This document shows, piece by piece, positions 1 to 19,807 of a DNA stretch of 64,000 bases. A program made the position numbers and the translations under genes. The stretch lies in the IMG/VR virus record IMGVR_UViG_3300030085_004825, positions 32,001-96,000 of that record. The stretch is one strand, 5' to 3'. The DNA is from a virus. How positions within the stretch are numbered: the first letter of the stretch is position 1; each line of letters opens with the position of its first letter. The notes under the pieces are model-generated. The model saw only the letters and a list, made by a program, of their open reading frames with translations, did not search any database and had not been told where the DNA came from.

Positions 1-34
1 AACTAGCTGAAGCTATATTTAATAAACTTAGATC

Positions 35-499
35 ATGACAAGAGAAGCACTACAAAATAGATTAAAAATTTTAATTAAACAAGTGTATGCTAATAAAAGA
101 ATTACACCTGAAGAAGCTGTTCAATATGATGAATTGACTAAGTTTCCTGAATTAAAAGCTGTTATTGTAGATCTTTTAACACCTGAATATGATAATTTTG
201 TAGCTTCAATTGATTGGGTTGCACCACGCCCTTCTACATTTAGAATTAATTTAAAAAATGATCAACTATTCTATTTAATTTATGGTAAAAGAAGTTTTAT
301 TGCTCAAGTTGAAGGCAAAAAATATTACTTATTAAATCTCCCTGAAGAACAACATGCTGCAGAAGCTATTGCTCGCATTTTAAGATTTGGAACCCCAGTA
401 GATGAAGAAAATACTGATAATTTAGGTGATAGTCCTGAAGAAGATTCTCCCCCACCTCCTCCAACAGAAGAAGATACAACAGAAGAACCTGAAACATAA
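35..499 (+). CDS. Hypothetical protein with acidic/Pro-rich tail; possible head-internal protein
   Basis: 154-aa ORF; N-terminal RLKILIKQV resembles the shared leader; DE/P-rich C-terminus. Confidence 0.7.
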   Translation: MTREALQNRLKILIKQVYANKRITPEEAVQYDELTKFPELKAVIVDLLTPEYDNFVASIDWVAPRPSTFRINLKNDQLFYLIYGKRSFIAQVEGKKYYLLNLPEEQHAAEAIARILRFGTPVDEENTDNLGDSPEEDSPPPPPTEEDTTEEPET

Positions 500-503
500 T
501 ATT

Positions 504-947
504 ATGAAAAATTTTGATTTAAAAAAGTTTATAAAAGAAGGTAAATTATATGAAGCAGCAATGGCTTGTCCTACTGCTACTCAAAATCTTGAATTAAATA
601 CCAAAAATAGAGATGCTTCCATCCAAGCAGAATACATCCAGTATGGTCCACTAAATGTAGATGAACCAGGAGACTATTGGAAAGATATAGCTGAATATTG
701 GAATACAACAGAAGAAGCAGCTAGAAAATCATTATGTGGTAATTGTGTTGCTTTTGATATCTCTCCTAGAATGGATGAATGCATGCCCGGCCAAACATCA
801 GATAAAGATGGAAGATTAGGATATTGTTGGATGCACCACTTTAAATGTCATTCTGCAAGAAGTTGTAGAACTTGGGCTAAAGGTGGTCCCATTGTAAAAG
901 ATAGTGTATCTTATGACTGGCAAGAAAGAAACGCAGATAAAGTATAA
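504..947 (+). CDS. Cys/His-rich putative metal-binding (Fe-S or Zn) protein
   Basis: ATG 504 follows the upstream stop at 499 and is preferred over 426. Contains CGNC...C...GYC..H.FKCH...SC..W; leader DLKKFIKEGKLYE. Confidence 0.65.
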   Translation: MKNFDLKKFIKEGKLYEAAMACPTATQNLELNTKNRDASIQAEYIQYGPLNVDEPGDYWKDIAEYWNTTEEAARKSLCGNCVAFDISPRMDECMPGQTSDKDGRLGYCWMHHFKCHSARSCRTWAKGGPIVKDSVSYDWQERNADKV

Positions 948-1870
948 TGGATATTTTAGATAAATTTTTACATAGTATAGCTTATAAGTTTCCTAAAGGG
1001 TATCCTAATATGGATAATCCTAAAGATAAAATTATACTTGAAAATGAATTTAAAAAAATAGGAGTAAGTCTACAAGAACTTACACAGGATGAACATTATA
1101 ACACTCGAAAAAAAGAAAGAGGAGAAGATATTTTATCTATTACTAATTTAAATCAAAAAATGTTAGGAGATAAATATACTGTTAAAGAAATTACTCCTAT
1201 TATCATAGATAAAATTAAAACTGAATTGCAAAAAAGATTATCATATTTTGAAAAAATGAATAATTTTTCTGCTTCTTTTAAAGAAACTATTGGTTATAAA
1301 ATTTTAAAACCTATACTAAAAATAAATGGTAATGAATATGAATTATCTTTAAAAACCCAATATAGTAAAGGTAAAGATAAACAAGGAGAACCTATAATGA
1401 AAGATAATATAGGAACAACTTACATTCTTACTATTTCAAATGATGAATTACTTACTTTACTACTTTACCCAACAATGGATGATTCTAGTATAGAAGATAG
1501 TTTAGAATCTCATGAAAAAAGAAAAGAAAAATCTAAAGGGGTTAGACTATTAACCTTAGGGGATTTTGAATATATTATAGACCTAGATGAACCAGTTAAA
1601 AAACCTGATGAAAAAATTAATTTAGGTGATTTAGATTATAAAGTAAAAGCATCATATAGAAAAGGTTCTACTTTTACTCACAATAAATATGGTGTTGGGG
1701 AGGTAGTTAATGCTGCTTCTGCTGGTACAAGAGCAGGTGAACCTGATAGTAGAGGGATAGTAGATTGGGTTGAAGTAGATTTTGGAAAACCTTATCTTGC
1801 TAGTGGGGAATTAAAGAAAACTCGTATTATAAAAAATGTTTATACTACTTTATCTCCATTAATTTCCTAA
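947..1870 (+). CDS. Hypothetical protein with C-terminal Tudor/SH3-like motif
   Basis: 307 aa, TAATG-coupled to the upstream gene; C-terminal GSTFTHNKYGVGEVV...VEVDFG. Confidence 0.7.
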   Translation: MDILDKFLHSIAYKFPKGYPNMDNPKDKIILENEFKKIGVSLQELTQDEHYNTRKKERGEDILSITNLNQKMLGDKYTVKEITPIIIDKIKTELQKRLSYFEKMNNFSASFKETIGYKILKPILKINGNEYELSLKTQYSKGKDKQGEPIMKDNIGTTYILTISNDELLTLLLYPTMDDSSIEDSLESHEKRKEKSKGVRLLTLGDFEYIIDLDEPVKKPDEKINLGDLDYKVKASYRKGSTFTHNKYGVGEVVNAASAGTRAGEPDSRGIVDWVEVDFGKPYLASGELKKTRIIKNVYTTLSPLIS

Positions 1871-1876
1871 ATAAAA

Positions 1877-1908
1877 TTTGGATCCTTAAAAAAATAGATG
1901 TATATTCA
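1877..1908 (+). promoter_or_regulatory. Bacteroidota sigmaA-type promoter (-33 TTG / -7 TAnnTT)
   Basis: TTTGG(1877)..TATATTCA(1901); 20 nt between TTG and TA, identical spacing at 7 other sites. Confidence 0.7.
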
Positions 1909-1926
1909 TTTAAAATCTATTAGATT

Positions 1927-3024
1927 ATGAAAACAAAAACAAAATCCCTATCATCAGAGATTACTGATAGGATAGTAACAGTAGATGGACTTTTAGAAGC
2001 CCATAATATATCTTTAGATAACTGGGATATAGAAAAACAAATAGTAAATACTTGGGAAGTAGGAACTAAAGGCCCTGATGGTAATATATTAACTACTCCT
2101 TTATTTCAAGTTAAAATTTGGTTAAATAGTAAAACTGAACCCATTGTAAAAAATATTAGAGAAGAATTTATAGAAGATTTAAAAAAGTTATCACCCAAAA
2201 TAGAAAAGATTAAATATAAATCTAAAATAGATAAAGATCCTTTATTACTTGAATTAAACATATTTGATTTACATTTAGGTAAAATCTCCTGGTCTGAAGA
2301 AACAAATCAAGAATATAATTTAGAAGTAGCTAGTGATATTTTTAACCAATGTATTGAGGAATTTATTCAAGAAACTTCAAATAAAAATATAGAAAAAATA
2401 GTATTTCCTATTGGAAATGATTTTTTCAACTCAGATAAATCATACCCATTTAATAGTACAACTAAAGGTACACCACAAGAAGAAGATGCTAGATGGCAAA
2501 AAACATTTCGTTTAGGTAGACAACTTCTTGTAAATGCTATAAACAAATTAACTAATATAGCTCCTGTAGATGTAATTATGGTACCTGGTAATCATGATTT
2601 TGAAAGAAATTTTTATTTAGGGGATTCATTAGAAGGTTGGTTTTACAACAATAAAAATGTAACTGTAGATAATTCCGCTAATCCAAGAAAGTATTATGAA
2701 TACGGGGAAGTATTAATTGGTTATACGCATGGTAATGAAGAAAAAGTAATAGATTTACCATTAATAATGGCAAATGAGAAACCTAAAGAATGGGCTATGT
2801 CTACTTTTAGAGAATTTCATTTAGGTCATGAACATCGCAAAAAAGAAATTAAATTTAAATCTACTGAAGAATATCAAGGGGTAGTTATCAGATATTTTAA
2901 TTCCCTTTCAGCTACTGATTCTTGGCACCATAAAAGAGGATATATAGGAGCTAAAAGGTCTGCTGAAGCATTACTTTGGGATAAAACAAAAGGTTTAAAA
3001 AATAATCTGTATTTTATAGTATAA
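1927..3024 (+). CDS. Calcineurin-like metallophosphoesterase (Mre11/SbcD-like fold)
   Basis: DLHLG, GND, GNHD, THG and GHEH motifs in canonical order. Confidence 0.88.
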   Translation: MKTKTKSLSSEITDRIVTVDGLLEAHNISLDNWDIEKQIVNTWEVGTKGPDGNILTTPLFQVKIWLNSKTEPIVKNIREEFIEDLKKLSPKIEKIKYKSKIDKDPLLLELNIFDLHLGKISWSEETNQEYNLEVASDIFNQCIEEFIQETSNKNIEKIVFPIGNDFFNSDKSYPFNSTTKGTPQEEDARWQKTFRLGRQLLVNAINKLTNIAPVDVIMVPGNHDFERNFYLGDSLEGWFYNNKNVTVDNSANPRKYYEYGEVLIGYTHGNEEKVIDLPLIMANEKPKEWAMSTFREFHLGHEHRKKEIKFKSTEEYQGVVIRYFNSLSATDSWHHKRGYIGAKRSAEALLWDKTKGLKNNLYFIV

Positions 3025-3049
3025 TTTCTAACTTTCTTCTTTTTCTTAG

Positions 3050-3057
3050 TATTTATA
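3050..3057 (+). promoter_or_regulatory. Putative late promoter (TATTTATA)
   Basis: Core of the recurrent ATAT(T/G)TATA motif, 3 nt upstream of ATG 3061. Confidence 0.55.
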
Positions 3058-3060
3058 ACT

Positions 3061-3918
3061 ATGGAACGATTAACTAATCTTATAAAAGAAGTATTATCCA
3101 CCAAACCAAAAGAAAAAGAAGGTTGTAATTGTGGGTGTGGTGGCTGTGATAAACCAGCTTCTAAAGGTATAACTTTAAATGAAAGTATAGCCCCCAAACA
3201 AATACTATCAGAAAATCTTCAATATCACGTACAAAATAAACTACCTTTAACTGAAAACACATTCCGTTATGGTTCTGAATCGTTTATTAATTTATGGGCA
3301 GAAGCTCGTTCTTTATACTTACGTGAAATTATTAATGTAAATGAAGATGATAAAGAAATTTTAAAAGAAACTGATTTAGGCAATTATGGAATATATGAAA
3401 ATATTAAAGTGCCCTTAGATATGCCTCTTTCAGTTAGAGCCAATGAAGTTCCTTTAATGAATATTTTAAGAAGAGCTGAAGAAAAAGGTCAAGAAGGATA
3501 CCCATTTTATAGAGAATTAGCTGATGAATTAAGACAAGAATCTATAGATTTGAACCGAGTTAAAGAAGTTTTAAGGGATTATGGTGTGTATTATGAATAT
3601 GAAGATCTTTTAAACTTAAATGAAGCAGCTAAAAAGAAAAAGAAAAAAGACCCACCTATAGGAAAACCAAAACGTGGGGGTTCTAAAGCATATTATGTTT
3701 ATGTTAGAGACCCTAAAACTAAAAAAGTAAAAAAAGTTTCATTTGGTTCTGGTGGGTTAAAAGCAAAAATTAATAACCCCAAAGCTAGAAAAGCATTTGC
3801 AGCTAGACATAAATGTGCTCAAAAGAAAGATAAAACAAAAGCATCATATTGGTCTTGTAGATTGCCTCGCTATGCTAAATTATTAGGTTTAAAATCATCC
3901 TTTAGTGGATTTTGGTAA
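3061..3918 (+). CDS. Hypothetical protein with very basic Cys-containing C-terminal domain; putative head-internal DNA-binding protein
   Basis: Leader RLTNLIKEVL, CNCGCGGC, several LNE/LSE/LTE sites, K/R-rich KKVSFG...ARKAFAARHKC...YWSC. Confidence 0.7.
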   Translation: MERLTNLIKEVLSTKPKEKEGCNCGCGGCDKPASKGITLNESIAPKQILSENLQYHVQNKLPLTENTFRYGSESFINLWAEARSLYLREIINVNEDDKEILKETDLGNYGIYENIKVPLDMPLSVRANEVPLMNILRRAEEKGQEGYPFYRELADELRQESIDLNRVKEVLRDYGVYYEYEDLLNLNEAAKKKKKKDPPIGKPKRGGSKAYYVYVRDPKTKKVKKVSFGSGGLKAKINNPKARKAFAARHKCAQKKDKTKASYWSCRLPRYAKLLGLKSSFSGFW

Positions 3919-3919
3919 A

Positions 3920-4354
3920 ATGGATAGATTAGAAAAAATAATTAAAGAAGTTCTTACTGAAAAAAAGAAAAAACGAGATAGATGCTTACGCATTGCTGAC
4001 CGTAAATTTAAAAAACCTTCAGCTTACAAATCAGGAGCTGTAGTTAGATGTAGAAAAGGGTCTATTTGGAAAGGATTAAAAGAAGAACAAATACGTGAAG
4101 TAGTTAAAGAATCTTTACGTGATTGGTTTAAAAAAGAAAAATGGGTTCGTATTAACACATCAGGTAATATAACTGGTCCTTGTGGTACAATGAAAAAAGG
4201 TAAAGCTACAACTCGTTGTTTACCTAAAGCTAAAGCACAATCTTTAACTAAAGCTGAAAGAAAATCAACTGTAGCTAAAAAAGTTAGAGGAGGTAAAAAA
4301 GGTAAACAATTTGTAAAAAATACTAAAAAAGCTGAATATAAAAAGAAGTCTTGA
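3920..4354 (+). CDS. Highly basic Cys-containing protein; putative head-internal protein
   Basis: ATG 3920 directly after the stop at 3918; leader MDRLEKIIKEVLTE; two basic modules (PSAYKSG; SLRDWFKKEKWV...CG...CLP). Confidence 0.7.
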   Translation: MDRLEKIIKEVLTEKKKKRDRCLRIADRKFKKPSAYKSGAVVRCRKGSIWKGLKEEQIREVVKESLRDWFKKEKWVRINTSGNITGPCGTMKKGKATTRCLPKAKAQSLTKAERKSTVAKKVRGGKKGKQFVKNTKKAEYKKKS

Positions 4355-4611
4355 AACCCTACATTGATATAGAAGTTACAGATTCCTATATTATTCGTGA
4401 ATTTTCTGAAAATATAGATCCAATAGAATTGTTATGGCATCGTGATGATGAAGATAGAACTTTAGAAATCCTTGGAGAAACAGATTGGAAAATACAACTT
4501 GATAACGAATTGCCAACTTCGTTAAATCAACCGATATTTATACCAAGACACCATTGGCATCGTGTCATAAAAGGAAATAATAAATTAAAATTAAAAATAT
4601 ATAAAAAGTGA
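4351..4611 (+). CDS. Small cupin-fold protein
   Basis: WHRD..DR and FIPRHHWHRVIKG cupin-like motifs; TTG start overlapping the upstream TGA. Confidence 0.6.
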   Translation: MKPYIDIEVTDSYIIREFSENIDPIELLWHRDDEDRTLEILGETDWKIQLDNELPTSLNQPIFIPRHHWHRVIKGNNKLKLKIYKK

Positions 4612-6650
4612 TATTAGACTGGAGAAATTTTGTGTTACGAAGTGATATAAAAAATTTACCTTTAGAGGAGCAGAGAAGAAAATTTTTAAAAGAACAGTTA
4701 GATCATGATAACCTTTTAAGTGAACAAAAACAGAGACAATATGAATTTTATATGTCTCAAATGCAATCCAAAGGAGGAGCAGCAGGAGGAGGTGGGTTTA
4801 CTGGTAATGCAAGTGATGGCCCTATTGCTGGAGCAACTGTAACCAGTAATATTGGAACTACAACTACTGACACATTAGGAAATTTTACCTTCCCAACAAC
4901 CCCTACCTCAGAAATAACAGTAACAGGTGGTACTGATTCTATTACAGGAGTAGCATTTACAGGAGAGCTAAAAGGATTTCCTCAATTTAAAACTGTTTCT
5001 CCATTAACTACATTAGCATTTCATTTAAAAGAAGAGGATGCAAGTCTAACTGCTGATTCAGCTGTGGATCTTTTATTTGCTAGTTCAAGCACATTGTTTG
5101 GAATAGAATTAGAAGTAGCAGACAAAGATATAATGCTTAATAAGGACTATGTAGCAGAATCAATACTAGAAGACAACCAAAAAGCTATTGCGGCTCAATC
5201 AATAGCAACGTATTTAGAGAGTGTTACTGAGATGGTAGGTAGTGCAGTTAAAAGTGCAGATGAAAGTGCAAAAGGATCAAACTTTACAGTTAATAGTGCT
5301 AAAGTTCAAGGCTATAAATCTATTGCCCGGCAAATACAACAAACGAGAGGAGCTAAAACTGAAATAGATCCTGAAGGACTATTTGATCTTGTTCAACGAC
5401 CAGATGGTCAATCTTTTACAAGGGGTAATACTGGAAGTCTTGATATAACAGCACGTCGAACTGTTAAAACATCGATAAATAATGTACGTACACAATTAGC
5501 AGAATTATCAAGATCTGAATTATATAATGCTAATTATTTAACAACACAAATACAAGCAGTTAACAGAGGTGTAAAAGAAGATTATAAAGTTCAAGCAGAA
5601 AGATTAGCCCGAGGTGATTCATCTAATTTTAAAAGCATAAACCAGATAGTAACTGAATCTACAGGAAGTTTGGCTCAAATTGAAAAAGATAAACCAAATG
5701 AAACAGATGCTAATACATCTAAAAAACCATCACGTGAATTTTTCCAATTAGGTGGAATGACTTACACAATGCAAGAAAAAGGACAAGATGCTGTTACACT
5801 TTCATTTAAAAGTGATCCTGGTCAAATGTTTGTAGTAGGAACTGAAATACGAAAAGGACAATTTTTAAACAATGATTCTGGCCCATTTAGACCAAATGAA
5901 GCTGGTAATTTTGTAAAAGCTGCGCCAACTATCATAGCAACACAAGTTACTGCATCAAGTGGTAAAGTATATGAAATAACATTGGCTAATCCTGGATTCC
6001 AAGTATTATCATCTCAATTAAAAGACGCAATAAAATATTTACCTGTTGCTACAGGTGGTTATACAATGCAAACTGAAAATAAAATCGGATGGTCAAACGC
6101 CGCAACACAGCCATTTACAGCTTCAATTGCTGCAAACCAAACAAAATCATCAGCTACTATCTCAGATAAAATTGGTAGCACACTTTATGAAATAGAATAC
6201 AATTCAGGAACAAGTCGATATGAATTTTCAACCACTCCACAGAAAGGAACAAAAACATTACATGCACATATTGCTGATTTTACTAATGAAGCACAATGGA
6301 CTAGTATTGGAAACCCAACTCCACCTGGTATAAGATTTCAAATTAATAATTTTGACACTCATCATATATCTGATAATGGTAGATATAGTATATCAGCCGG
6401 CGGAACAGCAGAAGTAATGTCTAATAAAACATTTAAATTAGGAGGCAGAATTTTAGAAGCTACGCTTACTGTTGGAAAAAGTAAAGTTAATATAGCATTA
6501 GTCCCAACTGATGGTACAAATGCACCTAATGGCCCCTTTACATTTAGAGTTGGATTAGGTAATGTAACAACAACAGCACAATTTACAAACAATGTACTTA
6601 CTGTTGTAGATGAAGACACTACATACACAATAACATATACACCTAAATAA
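4608..6650 (+). CDS. Large beta-rich hypothetical protein (surface-protein-like domain after a short helical N-module)
   Basis: 680 aa; charged N-terminal ~55 aa, Gly linker, then DGPIAGATV...TDTLGNF...GGTD..TG..F.G.L...SPLTTL; Thr/Gly-rich C-terminus. Confidence 0.7.
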   Translation: MILDWRNFVLRSDIKNLPLEEQRRKFLKEQLDHDNLLSEQKQRQYEFYMSQMQSKGGAAGGGGFTGNASDGPIAGATVTSNIGTTTTDTLGNFTFPTTPTSEITVTGGTDSITGVAFTGELKGFPQFKTVSPLTTLAFHLKEEDASLTADSAVDLLFASSSTLFGIELEVADKDIMLNKDYVAESILEDNQKAIAAQSIATYLESVTEMVGSAVKSADESAKGSNFTVNSAKVQGYKSIARQIQQTRGAKTEIDPEGLFDLVQRPDGQSFTRGNTGSLDITARRTVKTSINNVRTQLAELSRSELYNANYLTTQIQAVNRGVKEDYKVQAERLARGDSSNFKSINQIVTESTGSLAQIEKDKPNETDANTSKKPSREFFQLGGMTYTMQEKGQDAVTLSFKSDPGQMFVVGTEIRKGQFLNNDSGPFRPNEAGNFVKAAPTIIATQVTASSGKVYEITLANPGFQVLSSQLKDAIKYLPVATGGYTMQTENKIGWSNAATQPFTASIAANQTKSSATISDKIGSTLYEIEYNSGTSRYEFSTTPQKGTKTLHAHIADFTNEAQWTSIGNPTPPGIRFQINNFDTHHISDNGRYSISAGGTAEVMSNKTFKLGGRILEATLTVGKSKVNIALVPTDGTNAPNGPFTFRVGLGNVTTTAQFTNNVLTVVDEDTTYTITYTPK

Positions 6651-6652
6651 TT

Positions 6653-7375
6653 ATGAAAAGTTTAAAACAAACAAACGAAATAAAATTCAGTTCTTATGGT
6701 GTTTGGGAACTTCTTAGAAAAGTTTACCAAGATAAGGAAGAACTTTTACCAAAACTTGGATTTAAAAAATATGAAGATTTTTTAGATTGGATGAAAACAG
6801 GTGATCAAGATACACAAGATGAATTTGAATCTATAGTTGCTAAACATGAAAAAGAAAAAATGACCCCTATGACAGAAAATAAATTAAAACAAACTATAAA
6901 AGAAGAAATTAAACGTATTTTAAGTGAAAATATGTTTAAAAATGGTGATGTTGTTATGTATATGGGAGAAAAACATACTGTTGTTTCTGATGATGGTTTT
7001 ATTATTAAATTAAAATCTAGTAGAGACAATATTGTTAATCTTAATTATACCCAAGCAAAAGAAAAAGTTCGTAAACAAGATGACTTTAAAGAAGGAAAAA
7101 TTAATTTAAATGAGCATGGAGCAGGAAGAACTCCTGAAATTAGAGGTATGGTGAATATGTTATTTAAAGATGAAAGAATGACTAATGCTCCTTTAGCACT
7201 AGTTAAAGCATTAAATCTTTTAGATGATAAAACAGCCCAAGAACTTAACTTTAAAGTAGCAGAATATTTAAAACCTACTTTTAGCTCAGACCCTAATTCT
7301 CCTTCAAACACTGCTGCTATTAAAGCAATGATTGATATGGATAAAGAAAAAGGTAGAAGACCTAGTTTAGACTAA
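6653..7375 (+). CDS. Hypothetical multi-module protein; putative head-internal protein
   Basis: Internal KLKQTIKEEIKRILSE and LNE motifs; SH3-like segment FKNGDVVMY. Confidence 0.7.
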   Translation: MKSLKQTNEIKFSSYGVWELLRKVYQDKEELLPKLGFKKYEDFLDWMKTGDQDTQDEFESIVAKHEKEKMTPMTENKLKQTIKEEIKRILSENMFKNGDVVMYMGEKHTVVSDDGFIIKLKSSRDNIVNLNYTQAKEKVRKQDDFKEGKINLNEHGAGRTPEIRGMVNMLFKDERMTNAPLALVKALNLLDDKTAQELNFKVAEYLKPTFSSDPNSPSNTAAIKAMIDMDKEKGRRPSLD

Positions 7376-7381
7376 CATACA

Positions 7382-7430
7382 GACTGATTCATAGCCAGTC
7401 GACTTAAAATAAAAATTTTTTAGAGCTGTG
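7382..7430 (+). ncRNA. Candidate H-type pseudoknot RNA (riboswitch/attenuator-like)
   Basis: P1 GACTG(7382-86)/CAGTC(7396-7400); loop CATAGC(7390-95) is complementary to GCTGTG(7425-30) with one G-U; A-rich linker. Confidence 0.45.
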
Positions 7431-7461
7431 GCCTAATCTTTGGATTAGGTCACTTTTTTTT
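7428..7461 (+). terminator. Intrinsic terminator
   Basis: GTGGCCTAATC-TTTG-GATTAGGTCAC 11-bp stem followed by T8. Confidence 0.85.
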
Positions 7462-7470
7462 ATATATTTA
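7439..7470 (+). promoter_or_regulatory. Bacteroidota sigmaA-type promoter
   Basis: TTTGG(7439) in the terminator loop; TTG-N20-TATATTTA(7463). Confidence 0.72.
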
Positions 7471-7487
7471 GCACATAAAATTTACAA

Positions 7488-8843
7488 ATGAATAAAATAG
7501 TAATTGTAGGAGCAGGTGTAGCAGGTATTAATGCTGCAACTAAATTAGTTGATAATGGATATCCTGGTGATAAAATCACTATAATTGACATGGGTAAAGA
7601 CCCATATAATAGATTACCTGAAGAGGTAATGACGGGAATGCTAGGTGCAGGTGGTTGGAGTGATGGTAAATTAACTTACCATACTGAAGTAGGAGGTCAA
7701 TTATCAAAATATTGTGGTAAAGATAAAGCAATGGAATTATTTGATCAAGTTATAGCTAACTTTAAACGATTTCACCCTAAACCAGAAGAAGTACAATGTT
7801 CTGATCCTCAAGCAGAACCTGATTTTATTAAACCATATTTTGGTTTACGCTTATTCCCTGTATGGCATGTTGGAACTGATTATTTACACGAAATAGGTAA
7901 AAATTGGTATGATTATTTAGTTGAAAAGGGTATTAAATTTGTTTGGGAACATAAAGTTTATGACATTAACTTTGATAAACAAGAAGTATCATTAGCAAAT
8001 CATGATTTTGCAGGTGAAATAGAATATGATCATTTAATTTTTGGTGTAGGTAAATCAGGAATTGATTTTGGTAAAAAACTAGCTGAAAAATATAATTTAC
8101 CAACTGAACCTAAAGCAGTACAAATAGGTGTTCGATTTGAAGCACCCCAAAAACATTTCCAAAAATTAATAGATATTAGTTATGATTTTAAATTATATAG
8201 AAAATTTGAAGATAAGGGTGTATCACTACGTTCATTCTGTACAAACAATAACGCCGCTTACGTTGCTGCGGAACATACTTATGGCGATGTAAGTTATAAT
8301 GGACATGCTAAAAAAAATGAAGCATATCGAAATAATATGACTAATTTTGGTATACTAATGGAAATTAGAGGTATAGATAAACCATTTGATTGGTCAAGAG
8401 AGGCAGTTAAAAAATTACAAATTAATGGTGTAGGTACATACTATTCACCAAGTAATAGAACACCATCTAAAACATCAGAAGGTGATTCTGTTAAATGTGT
8501 TAAAGTAGACAACACAGAACCATTATTTGATGCGTTAGGAGAATATGGCAATTATATAGTTGATTTTATTAAAGATATGACAAAAGTATTTCCTACACTT
8601 GGGGATGATTGGGGTATTTATATGCCCGAAGTAAAATATTTGTCACCTGAACCATTAGTAGATTATAATAATCTTAGTTTAACTAAATATTCTAACGTAT
8701 ATTTTGTAGGTGATGCTTTAAGCGCAAGGGGAATTACAGTCTCAGGAGCACAAGGTACTTATGTTGCTGAATCTATATTAATAGATGAAGAAGTAAAAGA
8801 AATGGAAAAAAATTCTTCTGATTTAGAAGATATAGAATTTTAA
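7488..8843 (+). CDS. FAD-dependent oxidoreductase (COG2509-like uncharacterised flavoprotein)
   Basis: N-terminal GAGVAG dinucleotide-binding motif, GAGGWSDGKL, IGVRFE, RSFCTN, C-terminal YFVGDA..RGI..S..QG. Confidence 0.88.
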   Translation: MNKIVIVGAGVAGINAATKLVDNGYPGDKITIIDMGKDPYNRLPEEVMTGMLGAGGWSDGKLTYHTEVGGQLSKYCGKDKAMELFDQVIANFKRFHPKPEEVQCSDPQAEPDFIKPYFGLRLFPVWHVGTDYLHEIGKNWYDYLVEKGIKFVWEHKVYDINFDKQEVSLANHDFAGEIEYDHLIFGVGKSGIDFGKKLAEKYNLPTEPKAVQIGVRFEAPQKHFQKLIDISYDFKLYRKFEDKGVSLRSFCTNNNAAYVAAEHTYGDVSYNGHAKKNEAYRNNMTNFGILMEIRGIDKPFDWSREAVKKLQINGVGTYYSPSNRTPSKTSEGDSVKCVKVDNTEPLFDALGEYGNYIVDFIKDMTKVFPTLGDDWGIYMPEVKYLSPEPLVDYNNLSLTKYSNVYFVGDALSARGITVSGAQGTYVAESILIDEEVKEMEKNSSDLEDIEF

Positions 8844-8860
8844 GTAATATTTATTAGAAA

Positions 8861-9079
8861 ATGGCTAAACTAATAGATTTACTAAATGAATCTTTTTATG
8901 ATTCAAATAAATTATATTCTAAACAATATATACTTAATGTTACGGCAAATGCACCACGAAATATTAAGGATGTAGTAAGAAATTTAAAAATTATTGATTG
9001 TGTTGATTCAAACAATAATAAAAAAGAATGTGTAAAAATACCAGAAGTTTTGTATATTTACATTAGTGGTAAATATTAA
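8861..9079 (+). CDS. Small hypothetical protein
   Basis: 72 aa; starts MAKLIDLLNE; preceded by the ATATTTATT variant motif. Confidence 0.65.
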   Translation: MAKLIDLLNESFYDSNKLYSKQYILNVTANAPRNIKDVVRNLKIIDCVDSNNNKKECVKIPEVLYIYISGKY

Positions 9080-9091
9080 TTAAATAAAATT

Positions 9092-9622
9092 ATGAAAATA
9101 GGTTTTTGTGGTACAATGAGTGTAGGTAAAACTACATTAGTTAATGAACTAAAAAAATTACCTGAATTTAAGGATTATAAATTTGCTACTGAGCGTAGTG
9201 AGTATTTAAGAGATTTAGGTATTCCTTTAAATACTGACTCTACAATTAAGGGTCAAATAATATTTTTAGCAGAACGATCTTCTGAATTGTTACAAGAAAA
9301 CATTATAACAGATAGAACTATAGTAGATGTTATAGCATTTACAAAATCTGCAAAATCTATTTCTTGGACTCAAGGAAAACAATTTCAAGAATTAGCTAAA
9401 AATTTAATTAATGATTATGATTATTTATTTTATGTTTCTCCTAAAGGTGTAGAATTAGAAGATAATGGAGTTAGAACAATAGATAAAGAATATCGAAAAG
9501 AAATTGATGAATCAATTAAAACCATAATAGGTGATAAATTAGGTAAACACCCTAAATACACAGAAATATCTGGTTCTACTGAAGAAAGAATTAAAAAAAT
9601 TAAACAAGTAATATTTTCTTAA
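9092..9622 (+). CDS. P-loop ATPase/nucleotide kinase (NadR/AAA_28-like)
   Basis: GTMSVGKTT Walker A, ITDRT..D, YDYLFYV, EDNGVR. Confidence 0.82.
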   Translation: MKIGFCGTMSVGKTTLVNELKKLPEFKDYKFATERSEYLRDLGIPLNTDSTIKGQIIFLAERSSELLQENIITDRTIVDVIAFTKSAKSISWTQGKQFQELAKNLINDYDYLFYVSPKGVELEDNGVRTIDKEYRKEIDESIKTIIGDKLGKHPKYTEISGSTEERIKKIKQVIFS

Positions 9623-9650
9623 TATTTATAAATAAATAAAAATATACATA

Positions 9651-10454
9651 ATGAAAAAATCTCGTTTACTTGAAATTATTCGTGAAGAAATTTCCTCAAC
9701 TTTAAGTGAAGTTCCTTTCCCTGATGGACCTCTTGATGTTAAAAATCCTGAAGATATAGCAACTCGCCCTGAAGAGCGTGATGAAAAACCTCTTCAAGAT
9801 GCTATTAAAAGTGCTGTAGATATATTAAAAGCAGAATACCCAAATTTAACTAATGATGATTTAGCTAAATTAATTACTAAAGTTAATTCTGATAAAAATA
9901 GACAAGCTGATAAAGACATCAAACAAAAAACATCAGATGGAGAAACTCTAGAAATAGCAGCGGATTCTCAAATTGGAAAAGATTACAAAGCTGCTTTAAA
10001 TGCTATAGCAGATACTATAGAAGATCAAGCTGAAATATACCAAACAAATAAAATTGATGGTTTAATTAGTCAAAAAGGTGTTGATGCTAAAACAGTAGAG
10101 AGATTAGAAAAATTAAAAGAAAGAGGATATACTTATACTTTAGGATTTCCACAAACTTTAAAAGCAGTTGAAAGGGCAGTAGGTGGAGGTGCAACTAGAA
10201 AACCTTCTAAACCAAAAGCAGAAAAAGCAACAGCAACAGAACCAAAAGCAGAAAAAACAACAGCTTCTGAACCTAAAAATGATAGTTTATCTGATTTAAA
10301 AGATGAAGTAGCTAAAGTTACTACAAATATGAAAGATTTAGCTAAAAAATTCTCAAAAGCTGAAGGAGAAGAAAAAGAAGATTTAAAAAATCAACTTAAA
10401 GATCTAAACAAAAAGAAAAAAGAATTAGAAAAAGAATTAGAAAAACAACTGTAA
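9651..10454 (+). CDS. Charged coiled-coil protein; putative head-internal protein
   Basis: Leader MKKSRLLEIIREEISSTLSE; ATATTTATA at 9622; PKAEK repeat and coiled-coil C-terminus. Confidence 0.7.
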   Translation: MKKSRLLEIIREEISSTLSEVPFPDGPLDVKNPEDIATRPEERDEKPLQDAIKSAVDILKAEYPNLTNDDLAKLITKVNSDKNRQADKDIKQKTSDGETLEIAADSQIGKDYKAALNAIADTIEDQAEIYQTNKIDGLISQKGVDAKTVERLEKLKERGYTYTLGFPQTLKAVERAVGGGATRKPSKPKAEKATATEPKAEKTTASEPKNDSLSDLKDEVAKVTTNMKDLAKKFSKAEGEEKEDLKNQLKDLNKKKKELEKELEKQL

Positions 10455-10467
10455 AAAAGTTTTTTTC

Positions 10468-10827
10468 ATGAATAGGGAAGTTAAATTGAAGTTATGGCAT
10501 ATTTTAATATGTGTAACTGTTTTTATACTTTTATTATATTTTACTATTACTACAATAACATCACCTGTTAAAGTTGGAGATTATACTAAACAAAAGCAAA
10601 AGATAGATAGTTTAAATGTTGTTATACTTGGATTAGAAGATAAACAATTGGAATTAAATAAATCTATTATATACCAACAAAATGAAATTGTTATTTTAAA
10701 TAAACAAATTGATAGTACAAATATAGAAATAGTAAAAGTAAAAGAACATTATGGTAAAAAAATTAAAAATATTACTACTTATACTCCTACTCAACTCGAT
10801 AAGTTTTTCACAGAAAGATACCAATAA
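10468..10827 (+). CDS. Membrane-anchored coiled-coil protein (i-spanin-like)
   Basis: N-terminal TM helix (HILICVTVFILLLYFTI) followed by heptad-rich domain. Confidence 0.55.
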   Translation: MNREVKLKLWHILICVTVFILLLYFTITTITSPVKVGDYTKQKQKIDSLNVVILGLEDKQLELNKSIIYQQNEIVILNKQIDSTNIEIVKVKEHYGKKIKNITTYTPTQLDKFFTERYQ

Positions 10828-11179
10828 AATTTGTTTTGATTATAATATTGCTAAAAAAATAGCAGTTGATTTAACTAAAGGTGACTCCGCAATTGCAGAA
10901 CTAACCAAAACCAACCAGTTAATTTTAGAATTAAATGAAAAATCTATTAGACAAGATAGTGTTATAAAAGATTTTGAAACTAAAGATTACAACTATATTC
11001 TTCAAATTGAAAATCATGTTCAAATAAATGAACAAAATTCTTTAATTGTTAAAGGGTTAGAAAAAGATGTTAGTAAATTACAAAAATCAAATAATAGATT
11101 AAAAAAAGGTCTTAAATTTTTAGGTGGAGGTTTTTTGGCTATTTTAACTCCTTTAATTATATTAATAGTACTTAAATAA
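10751..11179 (+). CDS. Exported coiled-coil protein with C-terminal TM helix (possible spanin partner)
   Basis: Signal peptide ...SISFS/Q, coiled coil, C-terminal FLGGGFLAILTPLIILIVL; overlaps the upstream gene by 77 nt. Confidence 0.55.
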   Translation: MVKKLKILLLILLLNSISFSQKDTNKICFDYNIAKKIAVDLTKGDSAIAELTKTNQLILELNEKSIRQDSVIKDFETKDYNYILQIENHVQINEQNSLIVKGLEKDVSKLQKSNNRLKKGLKFLGGGFLAILTPLIILIVLK

Positions 11180-11180
11180 A

Positions 11181-12764
11181 ATGAGCCAAGATCTTAAACA
11201 GAAAATACGAGAAGAATATGTAAAATGTGCTGCTTCCCCTGCATATTTTATGCGTAAGTATTGTTATATTCAACACCCTAAACGTGGAAGAATTCAATTT
11301 AATTTATACCCTTTTCAAGATAAAGTATTAACTTTATTTCAAGAAAATCCTTATTCTATTGTTTTAAAATCTAGACAGTTAGGTATATCTACTTTGACTG
11401 CAGGTTATTCATTATGGATGATGTTATTTAACCAAGATAAAAATATACTCTGTATAGCAACAAAACAAGAAACTGCTAAAAACATGGTTACTAAGGTTAA
11501 ATTTATGTACGATAATTTACCTTCATGGCTTAAAGAAAAACAAAAACCTTCTGAAGATAATAAATTAACTCTTAGACTAAATAATGGCTCCCAAATAAAA
11601 GCCACTTCAGCAAGTTCAGACGCTGGTCGATCAGAAGCAGTTTCTTTATTAATAATTGATGAGGCAGCTTTTATTAACAACATAGGTGAAATATGGGCTT
11701 CAGCACAACAAACATTAGCAACAGGAGGTGGTTGTATAGCATTATCTACCCCTTATGGTACTGGAAATTGGTTTCATAAAACATGGGTTGCAGCTGAATT
11801 AGGTGATAATAGTTTTTTACCTATTAGGTTACCTTGGGAAGTTCATCCTGAACGAAACCAAGCCTGGAGGGATCAACAAGATGCAGATTTAGGAACAAGA
11901 ATGGCAGCACAAGAATGTGATTGTGATTTTTCTACTTCTGGTGATACTGTTTTTTATGCTGAAAATGTTGATTACTATGAAAAAGAATGTATTAGAGAAC
12001 CATTAGAAAAACGTGGATTAGATAAAAATTTGTGGATATGGGAACCGGTTGATTATTCAAGAGATTATTTAGTTGTAGCTGATGTTGCTCGTGGCGATGG
12101 GAAAGATTACTCAGCGTTTCATGTGTTTGATGTTGAAACATTTACACAAGTTGCTGAATATAAAGGTCAAATGGGTACTAAAGATTTTGGTAATTTATTA
12201 GTTGGTATAGCAACTGAGTACAATAATGCTTTACTTGCACCTGAAAATTCAAGTATAGGATGGTCAACTATTCAAACTATCCTTGATAGAGGTTATCAAA
12301 ATTTGTATCATTCACCTAAAGGTAACAGTATGTCTGTAGATAACTATTTTGATCCTTATATGGATTACAGTAAAATGACACCTGGGTTTACAATGGCTTC
12401 AAATACTAGACCAATAGCAATTGGTAAATTTCAAGAGGCAGTACGAGATCGTGGTGTTATGTTTAGATCTGTGCGACTATTAGAAGAAATGAAAGTATTT
12501 ATATGGAGAAATGGTAGAGCTGAAGCCCAAACAGGGTATAATGATGATTTAGTTTTATCTTTTTCTATAGGCTGTTATTTAAGAGAAACAGCATTTAAGT
12601 TAAGACAACAAGGAATGGATATGGCTAAAAGTATGTTAAATAATGTTAGTAATAACGCTTCACCCTATGCAGGTGGATATTCTAATAATAGTACTTTTAA
12701 AAATCCTTATAAAATAGATAACCCTTACTCAAACGGTCAAGAAGATATTTCTTGGTTATTATAA
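11181..12764 (+). CDS. terL: Terminase large subunit (T4 gp17-like)
   Basis: LKSRQLGIST Walker A, LLIIDEAAF Walker B, STPYG, nuclease DVARGDGKDYS and NDDLV. Confidence 0.97.
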   Translation: MSQDLKQKIREEYVKCAASPAYFMRKYCYIQHPKRGRIQFNLYPFQDKVLTLFQENPYSIVLKSRQLGISTLTAGYSLWMMLFNQDKNILCIATKQETAKNMVTKVKFMYDNLPSWLKEKQKPSEDNKLTLRLNNGSQIKATSASSDAGRSEAVSLLIIDEAAFINNIGEIWASAQQTLATGGGCIALSTPYGTGNWFHKTWVAAELGDNSFLPIRLPWEVHPERNQAWRDQQDADLGTRMAAQECDCDFSTSGDTVFYAENVDYYEKECIREPLEKRGLDKNLWIWEPVDYSRDYLVVADVARGDGKDYSAFHVFDVETFTQVAEYKGQMGTKDFGNLLVGIATEYNNALLAPENSSIGWSTIQTILDRGYQNLYHSPKGNSMSVDNYFDPYMDYSKMTPGFTMASNTRPIAIGKFQEAVRDRGVMFRSVRLLEEMKVFIWRNGRAEAQTGYNDDLVLSFSIGCYLRETAFKLRQQGMDMAKSMLNNVSNNASPYAGGYSNNSTFKNPYKIDNPYSNGQEDISWLL

Positions 12765-12776
12765 AAAAATAAAAAA

Positions 12777-14684
12777 ATGGCAGATACTGGATTATTTGGT
12801 AGATTAAAAAGATTATTTTCAACTGATGTAATTATTAGGAATGATGGTGAAGACCAATTAAAAGTAGTTGATATAAATAAAGTTCAAGTTTCAGGTGAAT
12901 ATGAAACAAATGCTTTAATAGATAGATTTAATAGAATTTATACTAATTCTAATACTTCAATTTATGGTTATCAAAGTAGTTTTAACTACTTAATGTTAAG
13001 ACCTCAATTATATTCTGAATATGATGCAATGGATACTGACGCTATTATAGCTTCTGCTTTAGACATTATTTCAGATGAATGTACTTTAAAAAATGATATG
13101 GGGGAAGTACTCCAAATTAAAAGTTCAGATGAAGATGTTCAAAAAATTCTATATAACTTATTTTATGATGTATTAAATATAGAATTTAATTTATGGCCTT
13201 GGATTAGAAATATGTGTAAATATGGGGATTTCTTTTTAAAATTAGAAATTTCTGAAAAATTTGGTGTTTATAATGTTATACCTTACAATGCATTTCATAT
13301 AGAAAGACAGGATGGTTTTGACCCTGATAGACCTGCTGATGTAAGATATAGATTTGATCCAGATGGCATTAACCAAGCATATGGCCAATACTCAGTACCT
13401 ACTTCTAATTATCAAAATAATGATAACGACAAAGCTATCTATTTTGATAACTATGAAGTAGCACACTTTAGGTTACTTTCAGATACTAATTTTTTACCCT
13501 ATGGTAGATCATATTTAGAACCTGGTCGTAAATTATTTAAACAATATACAATGATGGAAGATGCTATGTTAATTCATAGAATCGTCCGTGCTCCTGAAAA
13601 ACGTATATTTTATATTAATGTTGGAAATATTGCACCTGCTGAAGTAGAAAACTTTATGCAAAAGACAATATCAAAAATGAAACGCACCCCTTACATTGAC
13701 CAAGAATCAGGTGATTATAATTTAAAATATAACATGCAAAACTTACTTGAAGATTTTTATATACCAGTAAGAGGCAATGATCAAGCAACTAAAATAGATA
13801 ATTTAGGTGGGTTACAATATGATGGAATTCAAGATGTAGAGTATTTAAGAGATAAATTATTTGCTGCTCTTAAAGTACCTAAAGCATTTATGGGTTATGA
13901 AAAGGATTTAACTGGTAAAGCTACATTAGCAGCTGAAGATATTAGGTTTGCTCGTACAATTGAACGTATACAAAGAATTATAGTTTCTGAACTTAATAAA
14001 ATTGCTTTGGTTCATTTGTATGCTCAAGGTTATAAAGATGATGCTTTAGTAAATTTTGAACTTTCATTAACTAACCCTTCTGTAATTTATGATCAAGAAA
14101 GAGTAGCTTTAATGAGGGATAAAGTAGATTTAGCTAACTCAATAGTAGAAAATAAGTTAATGCCTACTGATTTTATTTATGAACATATATTCCATTTAAG
14201 TGAAGATGAATATGAAGAATATCGTTCTTTAAATGTACAAGATGCTAAACGTAAATTTAGATTAGCTCAAATTGAAAATGAAGGTAATGATCCTCGTGAA
14301 ACAGGAAAATCTTATGGAACACCTCATGATTTAGCTTCATTGTATGGCAGAAATAGGTATGATGGTGGAGAAGTACCTGAAGGGTATGATGAAGATAAAG
14401 AAGCGTTAGGGAGACCAAAAGAAAAAACGTCTAATAGAAATACACAAGATAATGCTTTTGGTAAAGATAGAATAGGAGCTATTGGAATGAAAAAAGATAA
14501 TGATGAATCTGATTCAATAAAGCCTAACTATAAAGGTGGATCTCCTTTAGCTTTAGAAACAAAAAAGAAACGAAATAAAAATCTTAAAATGTTTAATGAC
14601 ATCAAAAACCAGAAAAAACAAATGATATTTGAAAAAGAAATTAAAGGAAATTCATTATTAGATGAAAATCAAATAAAACAATAA
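12777..14684 (+). CDS. Portal protein (T4 gp20-like)
   Basis: MEDAMLIHRIVRAPEKRIFYINVGN, EDFYIPVRG, YLRDKLFAALKVPK; follows the terminase. Confidence 0.96.
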   Translation: MADTGLFGRLKRLFSTDVIIRNDGEDQLKVVDINKVQVSGEYETNALIDRFNRIYTNSNTSIYGYQSSFNYLMLRPQLYSEYDAMDTDAIIASALDIISDECTLKNDMGEVLQIKSSDEDVQKILYNLFYDVLNIEFNLWPWIRNMCKYGDFFLKLEISEKFGVYNVIPYNAFHIERQDGFDPDRPADVRYRFDPDGINQAYGQYSVPTSNYQNNDNDKAIYFDNYEVAHFRLLSDTNFLPYGRSYLEPGRKLFKQYTMMEDAMLIHRIVRAPEKRIFYINVGNIAPAEVENFMQKTISKMKRTPYIDQESGDYNLKYNMQNLLEDFYIPVRGNDQATKIDNLGGLQYDGIQDVEYLRDKLFAALKVPKAFMGYEKDLTGKATLAAEDIRFARTIERIQRIIVSELNKIALVHLYAQGYKDDALVNFELSLTNPSVIYDQERVALMRDKVDLANSIVENKLMPTDFIYEHIFHLSEDEYEEYRSLNVQDAKRKFRLAQIENEGNDPRETGKSYGTPHDLASLYGRNRYDGGEVPEGYDEDKEALGRPKEKTSNRNTQDNAFGKDRIGAIGMKKDNDESDSIKPNYKGGSPLALETKKKRNKNLKMFNDIKNQKKQMIFEKEIKGNSLLDENQIKQ

Positions 14685-14724
14685 TAAATTTTTATATATT
14701 TATAAATAAATAAACTTATTAAGA

Positions 14725-15579
14725 ATGCAAATTAAACATTCAAAGTATAAAAACACAGGTATTTTATTTGAATTATTAGTACGTCAAATTACAACGGATA
14801 CTTTAGAAAATAAAACTTCACCTGCTAAAGATATATTACAAAAATATTTTGTAAAATCTGAATTAGGAAGAGAATATAGACTATATGAATCTCTTTTAAA
14901 AAAAACCTCATTAACTGAAGCTAAAGCCTCTATTACAGTTTCTACTTTAGTTGAATCATCTAAATCATTAAATAGAGGAGCTATTAAAAGACAAAAATAC
15001 AATCTTATTAATGAAATTAAAAAACATTATGATTTAACACACTTTTTTAATCATAAACTTCCTAATTATAAGCCTTTTGCTGCATTTTATACTTTACTAG
15101 AATTAAATAATTCTACCACCCCAAACCCAGAACAATTAATTCAAAATAAAATTACTATTTTAGAACATTTAACTGTTGCTTCTATTAAAGAAAGTAAAGT
15201 TAGAGATGAGGTAATGGATGAAGTAAATAAATCTGATAAAGATACTAAACTTCTTACTTATAAAATTTTAATGGAAAAATTTAATGGTAAGTACGATAAT
15301 TTAGCATCAAAACAGAAATTAATTCTTAAAGAATATATTAACTCAATTGATAATGCTCCTCGTTTAAAAAGATTTTATACAGATAAAATATATGAAATTA
15401 AAAAGGAATTATTAGATTTAAATAAAGGTACTAAAAATAAAGTTACTAAAATAAAAATTGCTGAAGTTGTTTCTTTAATTAAGGTTCCATCTAAAAACTA
15501 TAAACTTAAAGATAAAGATTTAGTTGATTTATTGCAATATTGTGATTTAATAGACGAATTAGAAACAGCTAATGGATAG
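14725..15579 (+). CDS. Head-cluster helical protein of unknown function
   Basis: 284 aa between portal and protease; ATATTTATA at 14696. Confidence 0.7.
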   Translation: MQIKHSKYKNTGILFELLVRQITTDTLENKTSPAKDILQKYFVKSELGREYRLYESLLKKTSLTEAKASITVSTLVESSKSLNRGAIKRQKYNLINEIKKHYDLTHFFNHKLPNYKPFAAFYTLLELNNSTTPNPEQLIQNKITILEHLTVASIKESKVRDEVMDEVNKSDKDTKLLTYKILMEKFNGKYDNLASKQKLILKEYINSIDNAPRLKRFYTDKIYEIKKELLDLNKGTKNKVTKIKIAEVVSLIKVPSKNYKLKDKDLVDLLQYCDLIDELETANG

Positions 15580-16003
15580 AATTAAAGAAATAGTAAGAAA
15601 AAAATTAAAAGAAATGTCCGCTACTAACCAAAGTGGCGCTTCTTTTACCCCAGGTGAAGGGGCTAACTATGCTACTCCAACAGTTTTTAATAAAAATAAA
15701 AACGCTAAAGGAGCTAAAAATATTTATTATTATAAATTAGGATTTAAAAATGTTCCTAATATAAAACCTAAATCATACGACAAGAAAAAATTATGGGAAA
15801 TGAATGATTTCCAAAAACAACGTATAGCTGGGTTAGATGAAATTGAAAAATTAATGAATGAAATAACACCATTAGTTTCTAATGCAAAAAATGATACAAT
15901 TGAATTATATGGTGGAAACGTTGGTTCATATGATATCACACAACCAATAGAAATAGTTAAAAGCTATTTAAAAGAAATAAAAGAACTACTAACAGAAAAA
16001 TAA
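15572..16003 (+). CDS. Hypothetical head-associated protein
   Basis: Leader MDRIKEIVRKKLKE; located in the head cluster. Confidence 0.65.
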   Translation: MDRIKEIVRKKLKEMSATNQSGASFTPGEGANYATPTVFNKNKNAKGAKNIYYYKLGFKNVPNIKPKSYDKKKLWEMNDFQKQRIAGLDEIEKLMNEITPLVSNAKNDTIELYGGNVGSYDITQPIEIVKSYLKEIKELLTEK

Positions 16004-18480: not shown

Positions 18481-18498
18481 ATGCGACTTTAATTCCTC

Positions 18499-18580
18499 CT
18501 CATATATGTATATGAGAATATGCCACGATTCTATGTGGCATCGCAATTAATTATTCTATTACGTTTTTTAAATAAACGTA
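18499..18580 (+). promoter_or_regulatory. Palindromic late promoter plus structured leader of the scaffold/capsid operon
   Basis: CTCATATA-TG-TATATGAG inverted repeat containing ATATGTATA; hairpins ATGCCAC/GTGGCAT and TACGTTT/AAACGTA. Confidence 0.55.
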
Positions 18581-18608
18581 CTTTCCCAACAAAATAAAAT
18601 TTAGGAAA

Positions 18609-19778: not shown

Positions 19779-19807
19779 ATTTAAAAACGACAAAAACTAA
19801 AAAACAA

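Follow-up and report, generated by a model that had tools for sequence, protein, structure and literature searches.

A covarying pseudoknot that overlaps a predicted terminator upstream of a phage flavoprotein gene, a candidate orphan ON riboswitch

Bases 32001-96000 of the IMG/VR virus record IMGVR_UViG_3300030085_004825 (here G000), a stretch of 64,000 nucleotides (nt) called the window below, carry on the + strand a gene for a flavin adenine dinucleotide (FAD)-dependent oxidoreductase of 451 amino acids (aa) that is VP0956/COG2509-like (7488..8843). The interval between this gene and the 240-aa open reading frame (ORF) upstream of it (6653-7375, + strand) raises the question of whether RNA made from it controls entry into the flavoprotein gene and, if so, in response to what. 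An initial annotation of the window had seen there an H-type pseudoknot competing with a terminator, and had proposed either ligand- or protein-controlled read-through or a small stable RNA. Here, we describe the element as a pseudoknot whose helices covary in relatives of the phage and whose second helix excludes the base of the terminator stem, and we weigh its interpretation as an effector-controlled switch.

Covariation of both pseudoknot helices

All parts of the element are read from the + strand. The stop codon of the upstream ORF (TAA, 7373..7375; 6 nt before the first helix, P1) is followed by a conserved 5' flank, CATACA (7376..7381), whose last base, A7381, directly precedes P1 and is invariant in alignment A1. 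P1 pairs GACUG (7382..7386) with CAGUC (7396..7400), G7386 closing the helix, and has an apical loop of 9 nt, ATTCATAGC (7387-7395). This loop comprises the conserved, unpaired L1 (AU, 7387..7388), the 5' strand of the second helix, P2 (UCAUAG, 7389..7394), and an invariant junction C (7395) directly 5' of the P1 3' strand. The A/U-rich linker L3 (7401..7425) begins with the conserved G7401 and ends with the invariant A7424 and a variable G/U7425; its first 24 nt (7401-7424) contain 12.5% GC. It leads to the P2 3' strand, CUGUGG (7426..7431), of which 7428-7431 double as the base of a predicted intrinsic terminator hairpin (7428..7453) with 11 base pairs (bp; 7428-7438/7443-7453), five of them G-C, and a UUUG loop. 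A U-tract (T8, 7454..7461) follows, and the hairpin was the top terminator-like site in window positions 1-20000.

The nested minimum free energy fold of 7370-7470 consisted of P1 and the terminator (-23 kcal/mol, z = -3.64), a stability equalled by 1/200 shuffles. Taken from this one sequence, the pairing between the P1 loop and the terminator arm is not significant: random 9-nt loops found at least 6 contiguous pairs within 7401-7438 in 34% of cases, and because 6.6% did so while overlapping the terminator arm, chance would suffice. The pairing gains its significance from the covariation in relatives.

More than 588 relatives of the flavoprotein were present in viral contigs, and the 160 nt upstream of the best 80 contained the same element nearly everywhere, even beside a different upstream gene. 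Two covariance models were used, R1 for the full element and R2 for the aptamer alone, and R1 gave exactly one strong match per locus. A MAFFT alignment (A7) held 96 distinct cores; pooling three sets gave 155 distinct cores, from marine viral contigs. In the 96 cores, P1 was paired in 480/480 cells, all five pairs had changed on both sides, and the closing G-C was kept in 95/96. An earlier model-fitted alignment gave the same picture (100% of 350 cells paired). Across the 155 cores P1 occurred in 37 variants, with 5 bp in 125, 6 bp in 29 and a stem mismatch in one copy.

P2 was equally constant in pairing, with 576/576 cells of its six pairs intact in the 96 cores. From 7389 to 7394, the pairs were U-G in 86, U-A in 9 and C-G in 1; C-G in 86 and U-A in 10; A-U in 96; U-G in 95 and C-G in 1; A-U in 96; and G-C in 83, A-U in 6, U-A in 5 and G-U in 2. 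Thus, two pairs had undergone compensatory changes, and two others showed G-U/A-U/C-G exchanges. The observed pairing and covariation score were reached by 0/500 shuffles, sliding the partner by 1-3 columns lowered the pairing to 25-47%, and a smaller earlier test on 60 sequences agreed with the covariation result. All six pairs were intact in 155/155 cores, which fell into 9 P2 haplotypes. The covariation of 7394/7426 is not explained by the terminator, because this pair lies outside the terminator stem in window-type copies. Furthermore, the conserved G-U pairs imply an RNA read from the + strand. The conservation and covariation of P1 and P2, on which the initial annotation had staked its proposal, were thus looked for and found.

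That annotation had also placed P1, its loop, the 24-nt linker, the 11-bp terminator and T8 where we find them. Its version of P2 (CATAGC, 7390-95, with GCTGTG, 7425-30, including one G-U pair) needs adjustment: the complementarity is present, but the conserved register is 7389-94/7426-31, and the proposed end pair C7395-G7425 is not conserved (C-G in 65/96 cores, unpaired in 31/96). The claim that the element is GC enriched relative to its flanks did not hold, since the whole element has 29.5% GC against 29.9% for the window; the helices alone have 47-48%.

In the unpaired parts of the 155 cores, L1 was AU in 153 and UU in 2, while the junction C and the A at position -2 of the P2 3' strand were each found in 155/155. 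Position -1 was occupied by G (105 cores) or U (50 cores), P1 was directly followed by G in 149, and L3 measured 19-32 nt, some relatives having small hairpins inserted. The terminator varied between copies in sequence and length, and its stem covaried. Judged from the sequences, a constant L1, junction C and A at -2 alongside drifting stems represent a riboswitch-like pattern of conservation.

Competition with the terminator and a nested promoter candidate

The overlap between the P2 3' strand and the 5' arm of the terminator, already pointed out in the initial annotation, was kept in 67/67 distinct copies that were folded. It amounted to 4 nt in 39 copies, 5 in 7, 6 in 18 and 2 in 3. The predicted terminator itself (hairpin and U-tract) was likewise present in all 67, with differing stem sequences. 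In the window, the full terminator is predicted at -16.9 kcal/mol and the upper 7 bp, which are compatible with P2, at -8.5, making the contested lower 4 bp worth ~8.4 kcal/mol. The corresponding value for P2 by itself is 4.0 kcal/mol with 6 bp and 7.4 kcal/mol with 7 bp, P1 stacking and tertiary contacts not included. Since P2 and the lower terminator stem are near balance, a stabilisation by a few kcal/mol could decide the outcome. As modelled, these energetics are those of an ON-switch design.

The interpretation that we favour, and to which we give about an even chance, is an effector-stabilised pseudoknot antiterminator, the effector most likely being a small molecule; this would make the element a candidate orphan ON riboswitch. 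It would act in cis as a two-state RNA at the 3' end of any transcript arriving from upstream. In the nascent RNA, the P1 hairpin would form, and its loop would then pair with 7426-7431 to give a compact H-type pseudoknot. P2 would occupy the bottom four nucleotides of the terminator 5' arm, leaving only the upper 7 bp free to form. As long as the pseudoknot held, RNA polymerase would continue into the flavoprotein and kinase genes; if P2 were displaced, the full 11-bp hairpin and the U-tract would stop transcription. The effector would bind at the P1/P2 junction, where U7388, C7395 and A7424 are invariant and G7386-C7396 would form the floor, and thereby stabilise the pseudoknot. What the comparison shows is the two structures, their covariation and mutual exclusion, the tie to the gene and the promoter-like spacing; from these we infer the regulated read-through, the existence of the effector and its identity.

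The small energy difference between P2 and the lower terminator stem also makes a kinetic split plausible, in which the pseudoknot would need no effector and would either set a fixed partial read-through or respond to transcription speed, temperature or Mg2+. With the G at -1 pairing the junction C in 105/155 cores, P2 would have 7 bp stacked on P1, and no empty pocket would be left. However, the invariance of the unpaired L1, C7395 and A7424 in the 155 cores exceeds the needs of a simple competing helix, and C7395 stays invariant even in the 50 cores where a U at -1 deprives it of a partner. We therefore hold an effector-free device to be distinctly unlikely.

The initial annotation had overlooked a conserved putative promoter between the terminator loop and the gene. 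Its upstream box, TTTGGAT (-35/-33-like; 7439..7445, + strand), starts in the terminator loop, and its downstream box, TATATT (-10/-7-like; 7463..7468, + strand), lies 20 nt before the ATG. In the relatives, TTTGG was always within the terminator loop and TATATT 3' of the U-tract. The arrangement TTGGnn-17-TATATT was exact in 60/67 distinct copies, despite varying stem and U-tract lengths; three more copies were missed by the spacing pattern, among them the window, which has TTGGAT at 7440-45, 17 nt and TATATT at 7463-68.

Similar boxes recur in the window. Exact TTTG-N20-TATATT was found at six + strand sites, five of them 18-33 nt before ORF starts (1927, 7488, 11181, 34866 and 50220), and TTTGG-N19-TATATT stands before the other ORFs at 1877-1906, 11134-11163, 34819-34848 and 50158-50187 (+ strand). 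A simple sigma-70 scan of window positions 1-20000 did not list the TTTGG/TATATT site. The motif resembles the -33 TTTG/-7 TAnnTTTG pattern of Bacteroidota promoters. Type-IX-secretion sorting domains (CHU_C, Por_Secre_tail) end two phage proteins (window 34866-36074 and 57954-60752), which suggests a Bacteroidota host. TTTGG-N19-TATATT is likely a promoter consensus of the phage, of host type. With a promoter located between switch and gene, flavoprotein expression would not depend on read-through alone, so the switch would govern only transcription arriving from upstream. The promoter, contained in the terminator loop, 3' arm and U-tract, would provide a separate, unregulated entry to the gene.

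Two loci depart from the common arrangement. In L081 (822-917), the terminator and TATATT are kept and P1 and its loop are absent, a variant that could be used as a natural switch-less control. L251 holds a second, partial copy (561-633) with P1, loop and A-rich linker and without the P2 3' strand or the terminator; it runs straight into a 92-aa ORF, after which the full copy follows. This half copy hints at recombination within the element. Two further candidate pairings, loop with start codon and 5' flank with TATATT box, were checked by eye in the relatives and rejected, neither being conserved.

Linkage to the flavoprotein gene and presence in RNA libraries

A scan with the RNA motif only yielded at least 120 loci, of which 80 were listed and all of these confirmed by R1. 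Among the matches listed, the flavoprotein gene was downstream in 78/78 evaluable loci (two were cut), at a distance of up to 1.2 kb in 73 and of 1.3-2.2 kb, by the best high-scoring segment pair, in 5. When model matches had been found through the protein, the next ORF of at least 40 aa was the flavoprotein in 109/118; the remaining 9 had a small inserted ORF in between (49-51 aa in six, DenV-like with 156 aa in two, and a P-loop kinase of 194 aa in one). Downstream of the flavoprotein, the AAA_28 kinase gene was found in 191/194 loci with at least 1500 nt of room, several of which may share a contig. In the window, this conserved partner is a P-loop kinase gene (9092..9622, + strand; NadR/nucleoside-kinase-like). 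The tie to the flavoprotein and kinase genes that had been read from the window therefore recurs in relatives. With R1, G000 and each of five related records (77-160 kb, three with a completeness of at least 96%) had a single copy, and R2 likewise found one copy in each of G000-G004.

In the other genomes searched, convincing copies were not found. The cultured relative immuto_2-6A had neither the element (best match 25 bits) nor the flavoprotein, and a Campylobacter phage locus encoding a 26%-identical flavoprotein homologue had no element. In 151 Flavobacteriaceae genomes, the best R2 match reached 28.4 bits, compared to 73-77 bits for true copies. A loose pattern (16 fixed bases and a variable gap) listed 80 loci in unrelated bacteria; none of those listed was confirmed by R2 (best 19.8 bits), and these candidates were discarded. 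By sequence comparison, the element is a single-copy, gene-specific and phage-lineage-specific cis RNA that is absent from Rfam.

Several loci show insertions near the element. In L002 and L035 (2543-3013 in both), a gene for a DenV-like pyrimidine-dimer glycosylase (PF03013, E=5e-7) lies between element and flavoprotein gene. In two of the five distant loci (L340:995-3202 and L342:5420-7860), the flavoprotein gene is in two pieces, for an N-terminal part of 172-175 aa and a C-terminal part of 259-269 aa, with unannotated ORFs of 76-267 aa between the halves; the insertion is possibly mobile.

Gene exchange around the element brings up the possibility that its conservation is mainly at the DNA level, with the terminator and promoter serving as an insulator and a recombination boundary and the P2 complementarity being incidental. 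The constraint behind the exact 17-nt promoter spacing acts on DNA, upstream genes are freely swapped, cargo ORFs follow the element in ~1/10 loci, and the half copy in L251 (P1 and linker only) stands before an inserted ORF. On the other hand, P1 and P2 covary with pairing retained, DNA-level repeats would not keep G-U pairs or G-C -> G-U -> A-U paths, and there is one copy per genome, unlike dispersed cassettes. We consider this explanation extremely improbable.

The genes upstream of the element are diverse, with 32 families among 95 ORFs. The element was always at the end of an ORF, not behind a promoter of its own. In 84/148 contexts, the upstream stop codon was 2-12 nt before P1 (mode 6 nt), and in 64/148 it was 13-56 nt away. 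In L011, L015, L037, L045, L058, L066 and L073, the upstream ORF ends with a cysteine-rich tail, C-N-C-G-T-S-C-x-C-x-C-C-N-C.

The position behind an ORF bears on a second way in which the same two-state RNA could be controlled, namely by a macromolecule: an RNA-binding protein of phage or host, or the ribosome, which on finishing the upstream ORF would unfold P1 with its footprint and tip the balance (translation-coupled attenuation). The short distances in 84/148 contexts are within the reach of a terminating ribosome, and invariant loop and flank bases would suit recognition by a protein equally well. The 64/148 contexts with a distant stop, however, mean that ribosome coupling cannot be universal. 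No candidate gene for an RNA-binding protein is linked to the element, the upstream neighbours belonging to many families, and small-molecule aptamers are the more typical setting for a compact pseudoknot whose junction C and A are invariant. A macromolecular effector is in our view rather unlikely.

Two metatranscriptome runs of one marine study (X16 and X17) contained contigs with at least 85% likeness; such contigs show neither ends nor strand. They covered both element and gene, one contig of 157 nt corresponding to 7373-7523 and several joining 7402 to ~7498-7509. Summed contig depth over 7351-7432 was 15,559 and 10,528 in the X16 bins and 1,589 and 1,443 in X17, and fell to 705 and 466 at 7433-7473, which coincides with the most variable stretch. 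The flavoprotein gene had very high summed contig depth in both runs. What the contigs establish is that the region occurs in RNA libraries, where DNA carry-over is possible.

The higher depth over 7351-7432 than over 7433-7473 would be in line with a stable RNA end, in which P1 and the terminator form a small RNA derived from a 3' untranslated region or a protective 3' structure, P2 serving folding or processing. Against this, the dip falls in the most variable part of the element, and contigs cannot reveal ends. Since P2 and the terminator exclude each other, P2 would be missing from a terminated RNA. There is no conserved promoter or processing site upstream, and the exclusive linkage to the downstream gene, among the matches listed, indicates action in cis. 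A stable RNA end thus appears very improbable, and the small stable or ToxI-like RNA contemplated in the initial annotation is disfavoured by the single copy, the lack of tandem repeats and the lack of a conserved upstream promoter.

Several observations also weigh against the effector-stabilised antiterminator that we prefer. All copies come from one phage lineage, with ~6-7 independent P2 substitutions as read from the haplotype table. With the conserved putative promoter between switch and gene, the gene could be expressed without any read-through, and it is hard to see what regulating read-through would gain. Unusually for a riboswitch, the element stands behind an upstream ORF and lacks its own conserved promoter. 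The G at -1 (105/155 cores) may occupy the putative pocket in cis by pairing with the junction C, an arrangement equally compatible with a ligand-free pseudoknot. Finally, the regulated flavoprotein gives no clue to the effector. Its structural model is of high quality (pLDDT 95.5), and profile and fold searches led to a sole close relative, the uncharacterised VP0956 (3NLC); by sequence there was no PDB match. The family, "uncharacterized FAD-dependent dehydrogenase", had at least 7933 matches at E<=1e-5 among 8000 candidates scored.

Relation to known RNAs and a possible 7-deazaguanine effector

Scans with Rfam 15 at E<=10, covering 6800-8000 (6 matches) and the 116 nt of 7365-7480 (13 matches), returned nothing relevant, and RF00522 was absent. 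The best matches were terminator look-alikes, e.g., ctRNA_pT181 with 25.5 bits against a gathering score of 56. This agrees with the initial annotation, which had recognised no known family. A full-text literature search, which did not extend to supplements and so leaves a listing there possible, found no description of such an element. The accessible part of the 224-motif paper mentions "phage" four times, never about this element.

In the fluoride/crcB and ZTP/pfl ON riboswitches, the 3' strand of a pseudoknot is the 5' arm of the terminator. The element is similar in that its aptamer pseudoknot, once formed, would tie up the lower end of the terminator stem; it differs in having an unrelated fold and sequence and a terminator that carries a promoter, and these families were absent from the Rfam scans. 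SAM-II and SAM-V (S-adenosylmethionine [SAM] riboswitches) are compact H-type pseudoknots with loop-helix triplexes, SAM-V having come from marine metagenomes. The element shares the compact classical H-type fold with them, but has another consensus, no Rfam match and no methionine or SAM genes nearby. Antitoxin RNAs of the ToxI type consist of tandem ~36-nt repeats beside a toxN-like gene; no tandem repeat was found in 6900-7900, and the element is single copy. The PeSL cassettes of T4-type phages occur in many dispersed copies per genome, flanking variable genes. The element resembles them in joining a stem-loop to a host-type promoter next to a variable gene region, with signs of gene insertion nearby, and differs by its one copy in each of G000-G005 and by the additional covarying hairpin and pseudoknot.

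Further similarities are to preQ1-I (RF00522). According to the accessible text of two papers, preQ1-I folds as an H-type pseudoknot in which P1 has 5 bp and a conserved G in its closing pair and L1 has 2 nt (PMC10639078, PMC11625349); the C before the P1 3' strand is the specificity base that pairs preQ1 and the G of the closing pair is the pocket floor (PMC11625349). As far as these descriptions extend, the element has in common with it the H-type pseudoknot, the 5-bp P1 with conserved closing G-C, the 2-nt L1 with U, the C directly 5' of the P1 3' strand, an A-rich L3 and an A beside the P2 3' strand. There are also clear differences. L2 has 1 nt, compared to 4-6 nt in preQ1-I, P2 has 6 bp instead of 3-4, and L3 has 19-32 nt instead of ~6-8. 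The base preceding the C takes part in P2 here and is a free A or U in preQ1-I, and the junction C, invariant in 155/155 cores, may pair G7425 in 65/96. The logic is ON (antiterminator) rather than OFF, and the genes are those for the flavoprotein and the AAA_28 kinase rather than queCDEF/queT/yhhQ.

The source virus adds a metabolic likeness. G000 (122 kb, estimated 75% complete) belongs to a large myovirus in which every called gene is on the + strand and which encodes a terminase, a portal, a major head protein, ribonucleotide reductase (RNR), PhoH, a gp32-like protein and PolB. It also encodes FolE2 and QueD-, QueE- and QueC-like proteins, jointly the preQ0 pathway, and would in this way make the ligand family itself. 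These genes lie outside the window (L212:2557-4744 and L212:14062-15690, corresponding to G000 ~98.0-100.2 and 109.6-111.2 kb), those for QueC, QueD and QueE being ~58 kb distant from the element, and QueC was present in 5/5 long related records. QueF had no Pfam match in G000-G003, and is present in immuto_2-6A. TGT/DpdA had no Pfam match in G000-G003 either, and a 327-aa ORF beside the QueE-like gene, a DpdA candidate, had no phage match. In immuto_2-6A, guanines are replaced by a preQ1 derivative, according to the accessible part of PMC10516641. The DNA of the present phage is probably 7-deazaguanine modified as well. A further link to 7-deazaguanine through Fletchervirus (Campylobacter phages with a distant flavoprotein homologue) was dropped, because PMC10516641, in the part available, attributes ADG to phage CP220.

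By analogy, the element could be a new riboswitch class whose preQ1-I-like pocket would recognise preQ0, or a close derivative of it, as a 7-deazaguanine base of the phage's own making, an idea that we regard as unlikely. G7386-C7396 would then be the floor of the pocket, C7395 the specificity base, and U7388 and A7424 would make side contacts. Accumulation of the base would lock the pseudoknot, transcription would continue into the genes for the flavoenzyme-kinase pair, and the pair would process the base for DNA hypermodification, replacing the QueF branch of immuto_2-6A.

Some other features of this virus were noted. A megablast search with 6600-8900 against cultured phages gave no match. 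Two tail-sheath paralogues of 732 aa (30013-32211) and 657 aa (32259-34232), both matching phrog_23, adjoin each other. GroES and GroEL homologues are encoded at L213:1342-3271 (G000 ~115.3-117.3 kb), and a MazG-like pyrophosphohydrolase gene adjoins that for PolB.

Few riboswitch-type RNAs are known that phages own and have not borrowed from their hosts. This one is abundant (at least 120 loci by motif), supported by covariation, missing from Rfam and, by its presence in marine RNA libraries, expressed-looking. It offers a small, clean model of a decision between a pseudoknot and a terminator that has a promoter nested in it, and a way of approaching what a very common pair of phage proteins, the flavoprotein and the kinase, does. 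If the effector were a 7-deazapurine, RNA sensing would be linked to phage DNA hypermodification, and the element, as a 7-deazaguanine sensor, would be a virus-encoded metabolite sensor that coordinates a DNA-modification pathway.

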